A DNA stretch of 64,000 bases. It comes from Scenedesmus sp. PABB004. Taxonomy: Eukaryota. How positions within the stretch are numbered: position 1 is the stretch's first letter; each line of letters opens with the position of its first letter. The notes beneath the pieces are model-generated. The model ran no database searches, was not told the DNA's origin, and worked only from the letters and a program-made list of their open reading frames with translations. A program made the position numbers and the translations under genes. Positions 10,168 through 48,083 of the stretch are shown in pieces. Where the stretch lies: assembly GCA_014905635.1 (NCBI GenBank), contig CM026547.1, forward strand, positions 4,340,001 through 4,404,000, read 5' to 3'.

Positions 10168-11213
10168 TCACGGGGCGCCCGGCGCACCGCCTCCGCCGCT
10201 GCCGTCACCGCTGCTGCCGCCGGTGCCGTCGCGGGCGTCGACCGCCTTCACGCGCTCGCCGCGCAGCGCTGCCACGAACTGGCGCCGGAACGCCCGGCTC
10301 GCCGGCAGCAGCAGCGGCCACAGCAGCAGCAGGCGCCAGCGCTCGCTCTCCTTGTAGGTCGTCAGCGCGTACGCGCGCGCCCACGCCGCCGTCACCGCCG
10401 CCCACGCGCCGGCGAGCGCGAGCGCGGCGAACAGCAGCAGCGGGCTGCCCAGCGGCGCCGCGGTGCCGTGCGCGGTCGTCAGCGGGACCAGGGGGCCGCC
10501 GGAGCGAATGGTCACGCTCTGGTAGTACCTGCGCCGGCGGGGAGGGGGAGGGGAGGGAAGGGGGGGGGGGGGGCGTCAGGTCACACAGGGCCCCCGATAT
10601 CGCACCCTGACCTGCGGCAGGGCAGGGCTGGCCTCGCCCGGAGCGCCGCGCGCTGCGGTGGCGTGCGCGGCGCGCGGCGCGCGGCGCTGGTGCGGCCGCG
10701 CCGCGCGGCGCGCGCGCGCGCGCCTGTACGACCCCGGCGCGCGCTCCTCGCGGCGCTCGATGCGCACGCCGTCCTCGGCGCGGCGCAGGCCGCGCGCCAG
10801 CTCGGCGTCGAGCGCGCGCTGCGCGGCGTCGAGGTCGCGCATCGCGCCGTCAAACGCGCGGTCTGCCTCGCGCATCGCGCTGTCAAACTCGCGGTCGAAC
10901 GCGCCAAACACGGACAGCGGCGGCGCGGCAAACGGCTCCGGTGCGCCGCTGCTGCCCCAGCCGCCCGCGGCGGCGGCGGCCAGCTGGCGGCGCCGCCGGG
11001 GCGCAGGCGCGGCGGGGCGCGGCAGCGGCAGCGTCGGCGAGAGCGCCGCCCGCTGCACGGCGGGCCTGGCGGCTCCCAGCCGATGCGCCTGCGGGGGAGC
11101 GGCGCGGGGCGGTCGCGCGTGGGCGACGAGGGCGTCGCAGCGGGCCGCTGCCGCGCCGCTGCCTCCGGCGCGGCGCCGGCGCGGCGCGGCTCAGGCCCCA
11201 CCGCCGCGGCCAT
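10168..11213 (-). CDS. Hypothetical membrane protein with a putative plastid transit peptide, 3 exons
   Basis: Spliced reading MAAA/RAALSPTLPLPRPAAP...FDREFDSAMREADRAFDGAMRDLD (helical)...GVRIERREERAPGSYRYYQSVTI...hydrophobic segments...YKESERWRLLLLWPLLLPASRAFRRQF. Coherent protein-like sequence with consistent splice phases. Confidence 0.65.
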
Positions 11214-39104: not shown

Positions 39105-41898
39105 ATGGCGGCGGCGCCTCAGCGCTCCCCCCTGGGCTGCACCGCCTCCGCGCCCGACAAGCCGGCGGCGCCGTTCGTGGCCTGGTGCGCCGAGCGTCGG
39201 GTGCTCTGGCCCAAGTGCGCCGTGGCGGACCTCCCGGCGACCGGGCGTGGCGTCGCCGCGACGGCCGACATTGCGGCCGGCGAGGTGGTGGTCGAGGTGC
39301 CCGACGACGCGGTGCTCATGGCGGAGAGCTGCGCCATCGCCGAGGCGCTCGCGGGTGCGCGGCCGCGCGCGTGCGCGCGCGCCCGGGGGTCCGCGCCGAC
39401 CTTCGCGCCGCCCGCCGCGCCCGCCGCGCCCGCCGCCGTCCGCCGCGCCCGTCACCGCGCCCGGCGCGCCCGCCGCAGCCGACGGCCTGGTCAAGGAGTG
39501 CGCCGAGGACGCGCTGCTGGAGGTGCAGGGCCTCGTGCTCGCGGTCATGGCCGAGCGGCGCGCCGGCGGCGCGTCGCGCTGGGGGCCATACCTCGCCCTC
39601 CTGCCGGACGACATGACCCACATGCCCATCTACTGGGAGGTGAGGCCCGGGCTCGGCCCAGCTCCGAGCTCCGAGCGCGCCCGAGCTCCGAGCTCAGAGC
39701 TCAGCCGAGCTCCGAGCTCTGAGCTCTGAGCTCTGAGCTCAGCCGAGCTCCGAGCGCGCCCGAGCTCTGAGCGCGCGCGCGCCGCGCCGCGCCCGCCGCG
39801 CAGGACGCGGAGCTGGCGGAGCTGCGCGGCACGGCGGCGCACGACAAGATGGTCGGACGGGTGCAGCACCCGGCCGACGCGCCGACACGGGTGGCGCAGC
39901 TGTTTGAGGAGCTGGTGCTCCCGTTTGTGCAGGCCCACGCCGACGTGTGCCAGGCGCTGCTGGGCAAGGCGCCGGGCGACGTCGACGAGTCCGAGGCGCG
40001 CGAGGCGCTCTGGCCGGTGCGGCGGCCGCCGCGCCGCGCCGCTCGCCGCACTGCACTCCGCGCGGCGCCGGCGCTCGCGCCCCCCGCGCGCTCGCACGCT
40101 CCGCGCCCGCCGCGGCCGGCGTCGCCGCGCGCAGCTCTACCGCTGGGCCACGTGTGCGGTGGCCTCGTACTCGTTCGTCCTCGGCGACGACCAGTACCAC
40201 GCGATGGTGCCGGTGTGGGACCTGCTCAACCACGTGACGGGCGCGGCCAACGTGCGCCTGCACCACGACGCCGAGCGCGGCGCGCTGCAGGTGCGCGCGC
40301 GCACGCCGTGCCACCGCGGCGGCGAGCTGCCCGCGCGCTGCCCGCGCTCTCTGCAGCTGCCGGCGCGCTGCCCGCGCGCTGACGCACGCCGCCGCCGCCG
40401 CCGCTGCCGCGCAGATGATCGCCACGGCCGCCATCCCGGCGGGCGCGGAGGTCGTCAACTGCTACGGCGCCCTCTCAAACGCCGAGGCGCGGCGCGCAGG
40501 GGGCGCGCCGCTGCCGCCGGCCAGCGGCCGTGCACACGGCCAGCGGCGGCACAGTGCGGCGCATGTGCGCGCGCCGCCGACGCCGCCGCCGCCGCCGCTC
40601 CCGCCGCCGCCGCAGCTGCTGCGCGGGTACGGCTACGTCGAGGCACACAACCCGCTGCGCCACGTGCAGGTGCCCGCGCAGTTCCTGATTCGGGCTGCGG
40701 CGGGCGCCGCCGGGCAGGCAAGCGGCGACGGCGGCGGCTCGGGCCCGGCGGACGCCGGCGCCGGCGCCGCGGACGACGGCGCCGGCAGCAAGCGTGCGTC
40801 AGGGTCAGGGTCAGAGGAGGGCTCTGACAGCGGCGACGAGGGGTCGGACGAGGGCGAGGAGGGGTCGGGCTCTGAGGAGGAGGAGCCGGACTGGGACCTG
40901 GAGGACGACGAGCCGTCGGCGGGCGCGCCCGCGCCCAGCCTGGCGGCCGCGCAGGCGCAGCTGGCGGACTGGGAGGACCGCTGGCAGCTGTGCTTCAACT
41001 GCAAGCTGCTGCCCAGCAACGGCGTGTTCCAGGTCCCCGCCGGCGGCCTGGCCGCGCTGCCCGCCGCGCTGCTGCCGGCGCTGCTCGTGCTGCTCGCCTC
41101 CGCCGACGACTGCGCCGCGCTCGCCGAGGCCGCCGCGGCGGCCACGAGCAAGGCCAAGGCCGCCGCCGCGGCGGCAGCCGCGCCCCCGGCGCGCAGGGAC
41201 AAGCGCGGCGGGAAGGGCGCCAAGCAGGCCAAGGGCAAGGCGGCCAAGGGCGCGCCCGGGGCAGCGCCGCCGACGCGGCGGCCGCCGAGCTGGCGGCGGC
41301 CGTGGCGGGCCTGCGACTGGCGGCGCCGGCGGCGCTGCTGCACGCGCTGGAGCTGCTGGTGCAGCTGATGCAGAGTCGGCACACCTGCAGCCTGGAGGAC
41401 GACGAGGCGCGCGTGGCGCAGGCCGAGGCCGGGCAGCTGCCGCCGCGCCTGGCGGCGGCGGTGCTGGCGCGTGTGGGTGAGAAGCGGGTGCTCCGTGAGC
41501 TGGCGCAGGCGCTGGCGCAGCCAGGCGCGGAGCGGCAGCTCGCGGCGCAGGCGCGGCAGGCGCTGGCCGCGGCGCTGCAGCAGCTGGTGGCGGCGGCCGC
41601 GGCGGGGCCGCCCGGCGGCGGCTGCGGCGTCGCGGGCTGCTCGCACGAGCACGACAGCCACTGCGGCCGCGGCGGCGGCAAGAAGAGGCGGGCGCCGGCG
41701 GGCAGCGGCAGCGACAGCGACGGCGGCGGCGGCGGCGGCGAGGGGCCGCCAGCGGCGGCCGCCGGGCAGCGCCCGCCGCGCGCCGGCCGCGCCAAGGCAG
41801 CGACGGCGGCAGAGCCGGCTGAGGCGGCTGAGGCGGCTGAGGCGGGCGGCGCTTCGAGCAAAGCCGGCGGTGGCTTTGCGTTCAACTTTGCTCTGTGA
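39105..41898 (+). CDS. SET-domain protein-lysine methyltransferase (SETD6/Rubisco-LSMT class), multi-exon, one apparent frameshift
   Basis: TGRGVAATADIAAGEVVVEVPDDAVL, SRWGPYLALLP, YRWATCAVASYSF, MVPVWDLLNH and EVVNCYGALSNAELLRGYGYV. Confidence 0.9.
39660..39772. repeat. Intronic heptamer tandem repeat (CHGAGCT)n
   Basis: Repeated ccgagct/ctgagct/cagagct units fill most of the intron. Confidence 0.85.
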
Positions 41899-43653: not shown

Positions 43654-43802
43654 TCGATCCTTCCACGGCGCGGCCTTCGTGCCGCGCCTGGTTTTTTCTC
43701 ATGATGAGCGGGATGCCAGCCCTGTGGCTGAGCGGCGTCGACCCCCCAACCTTGTAACCAGGGGCGCCTACCCAATCTGAACCGAAAAACCGGAAGGATC
43801 GA
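43654..43802 (+). ncRNA. Candidate structured RNA with box C/D (K-turn) motifs
   Basis: ATGATGA (43701-43707) and CTGA (43777-43780) are enclosed by stems GGTTTTTTC/GAAAAACC and TCGATCCTTCC/GGAAGGATCGA, with internal hairpins. Confidence 0.45.
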
Positions 43803-44150: not shown

Positions 44151-44237
44151 GCCGACCTGATCCTGGCTGGCGCTGGGTGCGGGCTTCAAACCCGTAGCGC
44201 CCGGGAGGGCGAGTGGTTCGATTCCACCTGGTCGGCG
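44151..44237 (+). tRNA. trnU: tRNA-Sec (anticodon TCA), copy 1
   Basis: 87 nt. 9-bp acceptor GCCGACCTG/CTGGTCGGC with U.U mismatch, 6-bp D stem with 4-nt loop, loop CTTCAAA (TCA at 44186-44188), long variable arm, 4-bp T stem GTGG/CCAC, discriminator G. This is the eukaryotic 9/4 fold. Confidence 0.95.
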
Positions 44238-44328
44238 TGCGGCGCAGCGCAGCGGCGGCGGCAGACAGCGCGGCAGCGCGGCAGCGCGGCAGCGTGCGAG
44301 CAGGGGCGGCAGCGGCAGCCCACCCTCG

Positions 44329-44415
44329 GCCGACCTGATCCTGGCTGGCGCTGGGTGCGGGCTTCAAACCCGTAGCGCCCGGGAGGGCGAGTGGTTCGAT
44401 TCCACCTGGTCGGCG
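44329..44415 (+). tRNA. trnU: tRNA-Sec (TCA), copy 2
   Basis: Identical to copy 1 by inspection. Confidence 0.95.
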
Positions 44416-44506
44416 TGCGGCGCAGCGCAGCGGCGGCGGCAGACAGCGCGGCAGCGCGGCAGCGCGGCAGCGTGCGAGCAGGGGCGGCAGCGGCAGCCCA
44501 CCCTCG

Positions 44507-44593
44507 GCCGACCTGATCCTGGCTGGCGCTGGGTGCGGGCTTCAAACCCGTAGCGCCCGGGAGGGCGAGTGGTTCGATTCCACCTGGTCGGCG
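44507..44593 (+). tRNA. trnU: tRNA-Sec (TCA), copy 3
   Basis: Identical to copy 1 by inspection. Confidence 0.95.
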
Positions 44594-44676
44594 TGCGGCG
44601 CAGCGCAGCGGCGGCGGCAGACAGCGCGGCAGCGCGGCAGCGCGCGAGCAGGGGCGGTAGCGGCAGCCCACCCTCG

Positions 44677-44763
44677 GCCGACCTGATCCTGGCTGGCGCT
44701 GGGTGCGGGCTTCAAACCTGTAGCGCCCGGGAGGGCGAGTGGTTCGATTCCACCTGGTCGGCG
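44677..44763 (+). tRNA. trnU: tRNA-Sec (TCA), copy 4 (C>T at 44719, G.U pair in the anticodon stem)
   Basis: Same fold, with TTCAAACCTGTA instead of TTCAAACCCGTA. Confidence 0.92.
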
Positions 44764-44844
44764 TGCGGCGCAGCGCAGCGGCGGCGGCAGACAGCGCGGC
44801 AGCGCGGCAGAGCGCGGCAGCGCGGCAGCGGCAGCCCACCCTCG

Positions 44845-45612
44845 GCCGACCTGATCCTGGCTGGCGCTGGGTGCGGGCTTCAAACCCGTAGCGCCCGGGA
44901 GGGCGAGTGGTTGCCGTGGCGTGCTGCTGCTGCGTGACCTTCATTTGGTGCTGAGCTGGGCGCGGCTGGCTCGGGGCGCGGCGCGCGCGTGGGTGTGGGC
45001 GGCGGTGGGGGAGCGTGGGCGGGCTTGCGGCAGGCTTCTTGGTGGTGGGCGGTGCGTGCGGCTGGCCTTTTGGCCGAGCCGCCCGCGGGTCCTGGAGGGG
45101 GCTGGAGCTGGTGGGCGTTGGCCGGCGCGGGGCGGCGGTCGCCGCGGGCCACGGCCCCGCGCGCGACGCCCAGCCGGCGCACGCCGGCCCCGCAGTGTTG
45201 AGTCCACAGAGTCTCCACTAGCCGCCCTGCACGGCCTACTCGCGTCTACCGGTCATCCTTCCCCAAGCTCCTAACATTCGGTGCACCACGTCGCAGGGGG
45301 CGCGACTCTGCGAGTGACGGTCGGCGGGGCGCGGCGCGGCGCGGCGTGTGCTGCGTGTGCGCCAGGGCGGGCTTGCCGCGGTTTGTGTGGTGCCCCTGCT
45401 GGTGGCGGCCTGCCCCACGTCGTTTGCTTGAGATGAGGCGGGGTTTGCGCTGGTTTTCCCCCGCTGCCCCTGTGGCCCGGTAGGGCCTGCGCGGCGTGGT
45501 TGCACGGGTCAAGAGGACCAGCTACCGTCCTTAAGGGGCGCGGGCCCGATATGCGCGAGCATACGGGGTAAATGACCTTGACCTTGAGTGGTTCGATTCC
45601 ACCTGGTCGGCG
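44845..45612 (+). pseudogene. tRNA-Sec copy 5, split by an insertion (5' part 44845-44912, 3' part 45586-45612)
   Basis: The 5' 68 nt end at GAGTGGTT. The gene resumes at GAGTGGTTCGATTCCACCTGGTCGGCG, followed by the normal unit 3' flank TGCGGCGCAGCGCAGCGG. Confidence 0.9.
44913..45585 (+). mobile_element. 673-bp insertion, probable 5'-truncated non-LTR retroelement (LINE 3' end or SINE-like)
   Basis: Direct repeat GAGTGGTT at 44905-44912 and 45586-45593, no obvious TIRs, and a 3' tail TGACCTTGACCTT. A frame is open from the left junction to TAA at 45272-45274. Confidence 0.7.
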
Positions 45613-46905
45613 TGCGGCGCAGCGCAGCGGCGGCAGCGCAGCGGCGGCAGCGCAGCAGCGGCGGCGGCAGCGCAGCAGCGGCGGCGGCAGCGCAGCGGCG
45701 GCGGCAGCGCGGCGGCGGCGGCGGCGGCGGCAGAGCGCGACGGCGACGCAACGCAGCGGCGGCAGCGCCAGCGCTGGCACAGCGCAGCGAGCGGCGAGGC
45801 GGCGCGACCAGCGGCGTGGGGGCGGTGGGCGGGCGCGAATGTAACGAATAACATACTGGCTTACCGACCGCTGGCGTCAACCGCCGCCGTTTGCCCATGC
45901 ACAGCGCGCAAACCACACGCCTGCACCACGCACACGACGCAGACAGGCACGCGCCCCCGCGTCGCGTACATGTCGTGCTGTCGTCAATACTCCAGCCGCG
46001 CGAGCGATTGAACGCCAGCGGGCTCTAGGCACAGCAGGCAGCGCCAACAGGGCCCTGAAGGGGGGGAGGGGTGGTGGTGGTGCGCCCGGCCGAGCGTCGC
46101 AGCCTGCAGGCAGCGCGCACACGCACGCCGCGCGCCGGCTGTGCCTGCTGCTGGACGCATTGGTTGATTGATCGAAGCGTTAGGCAAGCAAGGGACCCAG
46201 TCCAGTGCACGTGGAAAGCAGTCAGTTGAGCCTCGACTGAGGCGCAGTCGAGAGTGCAGTGCAGCGTCGCGCTTGGAACCGAGCCAGCGAGCAACTCAAC
46301 CCAGGAATTCAACCCTGTGCGGCAGGGGGTTTGTTTATTGTGTCTGCACACCCTGCTCGCGCGAGCGAGCAACGAGGGCTCCGAATTGTGCCGACCTCTC
46401 CGCTTGATTTGCAGGGACAGTGCGCACCGGACGGGGCAAGCAGCCGACCGTGCCAGCCTCTCTCAGTGCGTGCGGTGCGCGCGCCGGCAAAAAGGCGGGC
46501 GATCACGGGCAGGCAGGCCGTCATGGGCAGCGCTTGATTCGTTGGGGCGGCTCATAGCCAGTGCAGCGCCCGAGCGGGCGCGGTGTCGCTACTCCTGCAC
46601 AGGTGCAGGCCGGGGCGGCGGCGCGCGCGCGCGCGCCGCCCCCCAAGGGAGGTGCATGGCGATGTGTGCGTGTGTGGACACGCACGTGGAATGCGCGCGG
46701 GAGGAGCATGCAGTGCGATCAGTCAACTGTCGACACGCATGTGCGTGCAGGCCCTGCCTGCAAGTGTGTGTGCGCTCAGTCCTCCATTGTCAAGCAGCAG
46801 CTCACCCCCAGACCAACTCCACCCCACGCCATCAGCGTACGCTGACGGCACGGGCCGCATCCATTCGGACGCACGGCCGGCCGCCGGCGCGGCAAGCCGC
46901 CGGGC

Positions 46906-48083
46906 TCACAGCGCGAGGAGCCCCGCCGCCGGGCGCAGGAGCGGGGCGCACGCGGCGCCCCAGGTGGCGACGCTGTGCTGCGTGCGCGCGACCGCGATGG
47001 CCTGAATCTCAAGCTCCAGCTCCTGCAGCTGAGCCACCAGTCCCGACAGGCGCGCGCGCGTGCTGGCGGCCAGCTCCGCCGCGCCGGCGCCCGCCGGCGC
47101 GGCGGCGGCGGCGGGCGCGCCCCACGCGCCCGCCGTCGCGGCGTGGTGCAGGTTGGAGCTGAGCGCGCCCGCCGCCGCGAGCTGCTGCCCGATCAGCAGG
47201 TCCAGGCTGGCCTCGGCGGCGGGCCCGCCCAGGCTGGGCGCCGCGCCGAGGGCGCACTCCATGCGCTCGAGCTCCGCCTCCAGCCACGCCAGCTGCTCGT
47301 CGCCGGCCGGCCGGCACCAGGCCTCAGCCAGGGCGGCGGCGGCCGCGTCCGCGCTCAGCGCTGCGCTGCTGCTCGCGGCGGCCGCGGGCGCGCCGCCTCC
47401 CCAGTCGGCGCCCCAGGCGGCGCCGGACTCCTCCGACACGCACGTCGTGGCGCTGGGGCTCGCGGCCGCGCACGCGGCGTGGCCGCCCGGCCAGGCGCCC
47501 ACGGGCGAGGACGTGGCGGCAGGCCCGCTGGCCGCCGCCGCCGCCGCCGCCTCGGGCGCGCCCTCGAACGACTGGCAGGGCGCCGCCCGCCCGCGCTGGG
47601 GGCGGCAGGGGTGCCCGGTGTGGCGCAGGCGCTCGAGCGCCTCGCTGTTGGCGCGCTTCTTGAGCAGGCTCGCGCGGCAGCTGCGCTTGGCGCCGTCAAA
47701 GCACGACAGCGCCTGCAGCTTGCCGCACTGCTGGCAGAAGCGCCAGCGCTCGTCGCTGCCGGCGATGCACAGCGAGTCCGCCGCGAGGTGAGCGGGGCAG
47801 AGGCGGCGCTTGCGGCAGTAGGGCTTGTCGCTCGCGGCCAGGTCGGCCCCGCAGCCGGCGGCCTGTGGGGACGGCGCGGGACGGGCGGCCTCTCAGCAGG
47901 CACGCGCGCGCGCGGCGCTGCTGCCCGCAGCCCGCGCGGGACGGGCGTGCGACGGACAGCGCCAGCAAGCGCGCGGCACAGCTGCCGCCGCCGCGGCCGC
48001 CGCGGCCGCCCCTGCAGTCGGCGGCGCACCTGGCAGAGGACCGTCCCGCGCCGTGTGGTGCTCGACGCGCTGCGGCGGACCAT
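46906..48083 (-). CDS. SBP-box (SQUAMOSA promoter-binding-like) transcription factor, 2 exons
   Basis: CQ/AAGCGADLAASDKPYCRKRRLCPAHLAADSLCIAGSDERWRFCQQCGKLQALSCFDGAKRSCRASL is an SBP zinc-binding domain. Confidence 0.93.

Follow-up and report, generated by a model that had tools for sequence, protein, structure and literature searches.

Green algae carry both LINEs and Chlamys Penelope-like elements. The closest described systems on the LINE side are RTE-related retroposons, which are described as having target-site duplications (TSDs), 5' truncation and microsatellite-like tails that are correlated with the first TSD base (PMC6007223). For Chlamys elements, frequent 5' truncation, non-autonomous derivatives (MRC1 is one) and a common use of (CA)n or (C)n repeats as targets are described (PMC8557442). 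Several other mobile elements are reported to be specific for RNA genes, among them R2 (PMC5035012), Utopia in U2 snRNA genes (PMC4640811) and the Dada DNA transposons in small RNA genes (PMC3706591), and a Penelope-like element of Selaginella is reported in 28S rDNA (PMC8557442).

The insert analysed here interrupts the fifth unit of a tandem tRNA-Sec array in Scenedesmus sp. PABB004, within a window of 64,000 nucleotides (the whole stretch of DNA that was analysed). With LINE-type elements that have microsatellite-like tails (the RTE clade and Au-like SINEs), as described in PMC6007223, it shares a TSD, the lack of inverted repeats, variable 5' ends and a tandem-repeat tail of variable length that is in register with the first duplication bases, but it differs from them in that no RT/endonuclease ORF was recovered and no Pol III head is present. 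It is like Chlamys and MRC1, as described in PMC8557442, in its green-algal host, in frequent 5' truncation and in non-autonomous copies, and is unlike them in that this copy shows no pseudo-LTR or head-to-tail arrangement and has no (CA)n or (C)n target. It also resembles R2, Utopia, Dada and the Selaginella Penelope-like element in being a mobile element lodged within an RNA gene that is repeated in tandem. However, nearly all copies of R2, Utopia and Dada sit at one target, whereas all eight other listed junctions or break points of the insert family lie elsewhere. In its way of working the insert resembles a retroposon that is of LINE type or depends on a LINE and that ends in a microsatellite tail, and we know of no named family with TGACCT as its tail unit.

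The tRNA-Sec array and its surroundings

The window has a GC content of 79% and contains 274 stop-free stretches of at least 150 aa, which overlap across all six frames. Its ORFs with Pfam matches represent SBP, PPR, MIP, FA_hydroxylase, S-methyl_trans and other families, and these matches show that the window is gene-dense nuclear DNA. Four tRNA-SeC(tca) genes of 87 nt each, with starts at 44151, 44329, 44507 and 44677, were called by ARAGORN and reach 77.9, 77.9, 77.9 and 74.6 bits, respectively, in the Rfam tRNA-Sec comparison (gathering score 47), and a fifth, partial match at 44845-44920 is sub-threshold with 38.9 bits. TRF describes the array as 4.5 units of 178 bp that end at 44912. The features of the array and of the insertion are as follows:

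44151..44237, + strand: tRNA-Sec copy 1, anticodon TCA, intact (ARAGORN; Rfam RF01852, 77.9 bits)
44329..44415, + strand: tRNA-Sec copy 2, intact (ARAGORN; Rfam)
44507..44593, + strand: tRNA-Sec copy 3, intact (ARAGORN; Rfam)
44677..44763, + strand: tRNA-Sec copy 4, intact, one C-to-T (ARAGORN; Rfam, 74.6 bits)
44845..44912, + strand: tRNA-Sec copy 5, 5' 68 nt including the left target-site duplicate (Rfam partial match; restoration)
44905..44912, + strand: left target-site duplicate GAGTGGTT, 8 bp (repeat family D7)
44913..45585, + strand: 673-bp retroposon copy, 5'-truncated or non-autonomous, without recognisable ORF (contigs X1, X2 and X6)
45573..45585, + strand: 3' hexamer tail (TGACCT)2 + T, still in register across the right duplicate's GA (TRF)
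45586..45593, + strand: right target-site duplicate GAGTGGTT, 8 bp (repeat family D7)
45594..45612, + strand: tRNA-Sec copy 5, 3' 19 nt (restoration, 87/87 against copies 1-3)

Five tandem tRNA-Sec units, four intact and one disrupted, are present at 44151-45612, with a unit period of 178 bp and a distance of 168 bp from copy 4 to copy 5. A single C-to-T at tRNA position 43 (window 44719) sets copy 4 apart both from the restored copy 5 and from copies 1-3; the change turns an anticodon-stem G-C into G-U and lowers the Rfam score from 77.9 to 74.6 bits. According to a published survey, tRNA-Sec is generally assumed to be single-copy, Volvox is entered with two copies, and no more than four tRNA-Sec copies that are not identical are reported among about 10,000 genomes, in three eukaryotic genomes (PMC5330540). 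The four-gene intact array is a more unusual feature of this neighbourhood than the insert. A close relative has the array as well, since a contig from one public DNA run (X2) repeats the spacer between copies 4 and 5 with a 168-base joint that goes back. Directly downstream of the fifth unit, at 45608-45816, a long imperfect GCAGCGGCG/CGG-type low-complexity tract stands in place of the shorter CAGCGCGG spacers of units 1-4; the contig comparison described below passed over 45624-45741 as repeat.

Several other features were observed in the window. A weak Rfam snoU13 match (26.3 bits, gathering score 46, E = 0.013) lies at 43657-43782, about 370 bp upstream of the array, and may be due to chance. 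ARAGORN also calls a 91-nt tRNA-Leu(cag) at 39679-39769 and a tRNA-Thr(ggt) at 10660-10747. The length of the latter, 88 nt, and its anticodon at position 30 are odd; the gene may contain an intron, or the call may be wrong. About 1.3 kb downstream of the array, an ORF on the minus strand (46909-47892) encodes an SBP domain (SQUAMOSA promoter-binding, 66.3 bits), which to our knowledge is restricted to the green lineage and points to a green alga or a plant as the host.

A clean insertion in the fifth tRNA-Sec copy

The octamer GAGTGGTT at 44905-44912 is found again at 45586-45593 as a perfect 8/8 duplication, and the insertion site lies inside the GGTTCGATTCC T-loop/B-box of tRNA-Sec copy 5. 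When 44845-44912 was joined to 45594-45612 by script, the result was an 87-nt gene identical to copies 1-3 at 87/87 positions and to copy 4 at 86/87; the event is therefore a clean insertion of 673 bp with an 8-bp TSD. It is young; neither the duplicated octamer nor the 87 nt of the disrupted gene carries a substitution. The empty-site joint (44912 to 45594) is not present in the environmental contigs compared, among which the X2 contig with the copy 4-5 spacer stops at 44887, short of the site; uncovered parts carry no evidential weight in this comparison.

A tRNA intron was also considered and ruled out, as the 673 bp are located in the T-loop, eight bases are duplicated and the same sequence occurs in other flanks. 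Eukaryotic tRNA introns usually lie one base 3' of the anticodon (PMC5330540).

The insert has a GC content of 73% and no terminal inverted repeats: its first 60 nt and the reverse complement of its last 60 nt gave a local score of 6, where shuffled sequences averaged 7.2 and 470 of 500 shuffles scored at least as high, and the repeat search that gave family D7 reports no pair at the termini either. At its 3' end TRF reports a repeat of period 6 (45573-45587, 2.5 copies, 100% matches), and the hexamer tail thus runs 2 nt into the right duplicate. A sequence-only reading of this stretch had described a 673-bp insert with duplicated flanks that splits copy 5 in the T-arm/B-box, lacks terminal inverted repeats and carries its tail in register into the GA of the target, and both its coordinates and its description prove correct on these points. 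The 12-mer TGACCTTGACCT occurs nowhere else in the window (0.04 expected by chance), and the 7-mer TGACCTT also sits 22 nt from the 5' end of the insert. Within 44913-45585 neither a tRNA (ARAGORN) nor any Rfam family at E up to 1 was found, the fold of the 3' 146 nt is no better than that of shuffled sequences (z = -0.64), and there is no second copy of the insert in the window, where the best other blastn match (78% over 72 nt) falls in low-complexity DNA rich in GC.

DNA transposons of the hAT type also typically produce an 8-bp TSD, and the exact 8-bp duplication might thus point to a non-autonomous DNA transposon (hAT-like, P-like or similar). Such an element would have a fixed 5' end, and one environmental contig does break exactly at 44913. 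However, breaks at 44925 and 45085 are seen in other contigs, copies differ in how many TGACCT units they carry, the ends form no inverted repeat in the above test, and no transposase was found in the scanned ORFs of the window, and we regard this explanation as extremely improbable. In particular, the insert is not a hAT-like transposon, as inverted repeats are lacking, and, having no head derived from a Pol III gene (tRNA, 5S or 7SL), it is no classical SINE either.

Copies of the insert in environmental sequence

Among public data sets from freshwater and sludge metagenomes, seven DNA runs belonging to three studies contain a fraction of 0.50-0.59 of the words sampled from the insert. In four RNA runs of one study the fraction is 0.23-0.26. 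Contigs of three DNA runs, one from each of three studies (X1, X2 and X6), and of one RNA run (X9) were compared with 44700-47000 at a likeness of at least 88%; the other copies discussed here are therefore those of environmental contigs of related organisms, and not of this genome. On 44913-45587, the X1 contigs match over 125 nt with 0 mismatches and over 461 nt with 9, the X2 contig over 528 nt with 5, and the X6 contigs over 150 nt with 0 and over 354 nt with 4. The contigs of the three DNA runs match the insert at about 97-100%. The X9 RNA contig (432 nt, 12 mismatches) is compatible with transcription of the element as well as with DNA carry-over, between which it does not distinguish. 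The right flank at 45624-47000 is almost bare except for a single 482-nt contig of X6, which shows 7 mismatches and 33 gap letters.

At least five contigs depart from the locus at 45586/45587 (one of X1, one of X2 and three of X6 among the loose ends listed). Their continuations, among the contigs listed, are unlike this locus and different between runs, and the three X6 3'-junction contigs agree with their own consensus at only 0.69. The X2 and X6 continuations begin with CCT(TGA), that is, with one more TGACCT unit, and 2-3 units are seen overall. Among the loose ends listed on the 5' side, three different sequences precede 44913 (X1), 44925 (X6) and 45085 (X6), and the 5' ends are thus variable, because these contigs break at three positions; the X1 break at 44913 may derive from a longer (parent) copy rather than from a shared 5' end. 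Eight contigs of X6, two of X1 and two of X2 are present at 45551, and one of each across 45321-45443. These counts fit a larger number of copies that keep the 3' end, although such a 5'-truncation gradient is only suggestive, since contig depth is no copy number. We left out an X6 loose end at 45146, which we take to be a library adapter, and the 21-22-nt pieces of X2 record 11. In searches of public collections for exact matches only, the 24-mer 45517-45540 gave 0 hits in metagenome_contigs, genome_contigs and viral_contigs, and the 22-mer 45202-45223 gave 0 in metagenome_contigs, results that do not imply absence from other data. The insert is a real mobile element, and its multi-copy state with copies in different flanks is directly observed.

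Coding potential and family assignment

A frame on the plus strand is open at 44855-45274, with its stop codon at 45272-45274. The earlier suggestion of a reading frame that enters from the left junction and is followed by a 3'UTR-like part stands insofar as the frame exists and stops at 45274, but it has no force as coding evidence at 79% GC, because a window of this composition is full of stop-free stretches. Within the insert several frames are open on both strands. No Pfam family was detected in any of the eight insert-overlapping ORFs scanned, and the frame translation (44915-45271) matched 0 of 1189 candidate proteins at E up to 0.01 in a search of 65-209-aa proteins only. Third-position GC is 0.93-0.98 in five host domain segments versus at most 0.84 in any frame of the insert, and no long frame was opened when the differences from the other copies were applied in a script. 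We read the 673 bp as non-coding, either as a 3' UTR or as the body of a non-autonomous element. In the whole window, no RT, endonuclease, transposase or other element protein family was found by Pfam among the 178 ORFs scanned (the 57 with the least Ala/Gly/Arg/Pro and 117 others of the 274, together with 4 shorter insert ORFs).

A candidate for a conserved ORF end was also tried: 37 nt at 45524-45560 match a lower-GC contig with 4 mismatches in X1 and X2, and all that X6 has behind 45560 is a loose end of 11 letters. We dismissed this match as due to chance: simulation of 40 Mb of random sequence gave one match of equal score at 50% GC and zero at 60%, and the rate at 50% GC scales to about 19 expected matches of this score in a 756-Mb run.

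As to the family, we lean towards a LINE-type element, for instance an RTE-like one. Alternatively, the insert might be a Penelope-like element of the Chlamys type that is non-autonomous, as MRC1 is in Chlamydomonas, and is moved by a GIY-YIG/RT protein instead of a LINE. The green algal host (cf. the SBP-domain gene at 46909-47892) would suit such an origin, as would the wide distribution of Chlamys in green algae and its often 5'-truncated, non-autonomous derivatives that share 3' ends, as described in PMC8557442. Two weak hints point the same way, namely the X6 flank consensus, which is rich in CA/CAAA and recalls the frequent (CA)n targets of Chlamys, and the TGACCTT 7-mer near the 5' end of the insert. 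However, the shared 7-mer is possibly due to chance (about 4% for the whole insert, as an estimate), and the target here is neither a (CA)n nor a (C)n repeat. Moreover, neither RT nor GIY-YIG was found in the scanned window ORFs, and the present copy shows no pseudo-LTR, no tandem or inverted arrangement and, the 7-mer aside, no direct repeat of its 3' end at its 5' end, although a 5'-truncated copy need not show one. On balance we consider a Penelope-like origin unlikely, and the LINE-type assignment is retained as the favoured one.

Choice of the insertion site

It had been suggested from the sequence that the insert belongs to a family that targets tRNA-Sec or B-boxes. This claim is not borne out by the environmental copies: among the contigs listed, none of the five other 3' junctions and none of the three other 5' breaks is in tRNA-Sec or a B-box. 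The sequence-only reading had itself named copies at unrelated targets as grounds against specificity, and all eight listed flanks are indeed elsewhere. Because the other copies sit in unrelated DNA, the present one seems to be an ordinary insertion and not that of a tRNA-Sec-targeting element. Within the array, only one of five target sites with identical sequence is occupied, and ARAGORN finds both tRNA-Thr and tRNA-Leu of the window intact. No description of a tRNA-Sec-targeting element was found among the best-ranked matches of a literature search, which is a weak negative.

A retroelement with sequence specificity for tRNA-Sec, or for the B-boxes of tRNA genes at large, to which the tandem array would offer a safe haven, could account for the precise position of this copy in the B-box/T-loop of a multi-copy RNA gene, and the chance that a random insertion falls within about 435 bp of tRNA-Sec sequence may well be low. 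Against this, neither tRNA-Sec nor GGTTCGANTCC is present at the above 3' junctions (0/5) and 5' breaks (0/3) listed for the three DNA runs, and no insert is present in copies 1-4, whose target sequence is the same, or in the genes for tRNA-Thr and tRNA-Leu. There is also a look-elsewhere effect, as many element families and many kinds of RNA gene are open to notice, and with many families each inserting many times an occasional hit on some RNA gene is to be expected. Specific targeting is therefore judged to be very unlikely.

Also improbable is that the family prefers, genuinely though not exclusively, genes transcribed by Pol III or open tRNA-gene chromatin, or that it represents an undescribed hexamer-tail clade active in freshwater green algae. 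One possible route to a Pol III-gene preference is annealing of the (UGACCU)n tail to targets that start with GAG; the junction CCTTGAG is common to the present copy and the X2 copy. Were such a preference true, the tRNA-Sec array would be a tolerated landing pad. The reading that we prefer remains an ordinary insertion.

A model for the insertion

Taken together, the insert probably belongs to a young multi-copy family of retroposons in a freshwater green alga of high GC content and came to this site by target-primed reverse transcription. The best reading is that it is either a 5'-truncated copy or a short non-autonomous derivative. Target-primed reverse transcription is indicated by the combination of a duplication, the lack of terminal inverted repeats, a precise 3' end with a variable tail, variable 5' ends, many flanks and near-identity between copies. 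The same mode of insertion had been proposed by the sequence-only reading, and this part of its account is upheld by the multi-copy state of the element, by ends that lie as the duplication predicts, and by the variation in 5' ends and tail units. From these features we infer that the intermediate was RNA, in which order the nicks were made and to what class the enzyme belongs.

In the proposed mechanism, an element-encoded endonuclease would nick the bottom strand opposite the C/G step at 44904/44905. The freed 3' end (...CACTC-3') would then pair over 2 nt with a GA of the element RNA's (UGACCU)n tail, and the annealed end would prime cDNA synthesis. A second nick, on the top strand and 8 nt downstream, would generate the GAGTGGTT duplication. 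Annealing to a GA within the (UGACCU)n tail would also explain why copies differ in the length and phase of their tails. That tRNA-Sec copy 5 was hit is probably incidental. The insertion destroys the T-arm/B-box of this copy, a loss that seems to be tolerated because four intact copies adjoin.

Implications

The insertion matters little beyond annotation, and its analysis removes the tempting but unsupported claim of a tRNA-Sec-targeting element. It also gives a practical warning: at 79% GC, ORFs are no evidence of coding, and ORF-based reasoning fails throughout the window. For the host, it shows that the loss of a single unit from a tandem tRNA-Sec array need have no visible cost. For the family, it documents a young, probably active (TGACCT)n-tailed retroposon in an extremely GC-rich green alga, close copies of which occur in several freshwater and sludge metagenomes.
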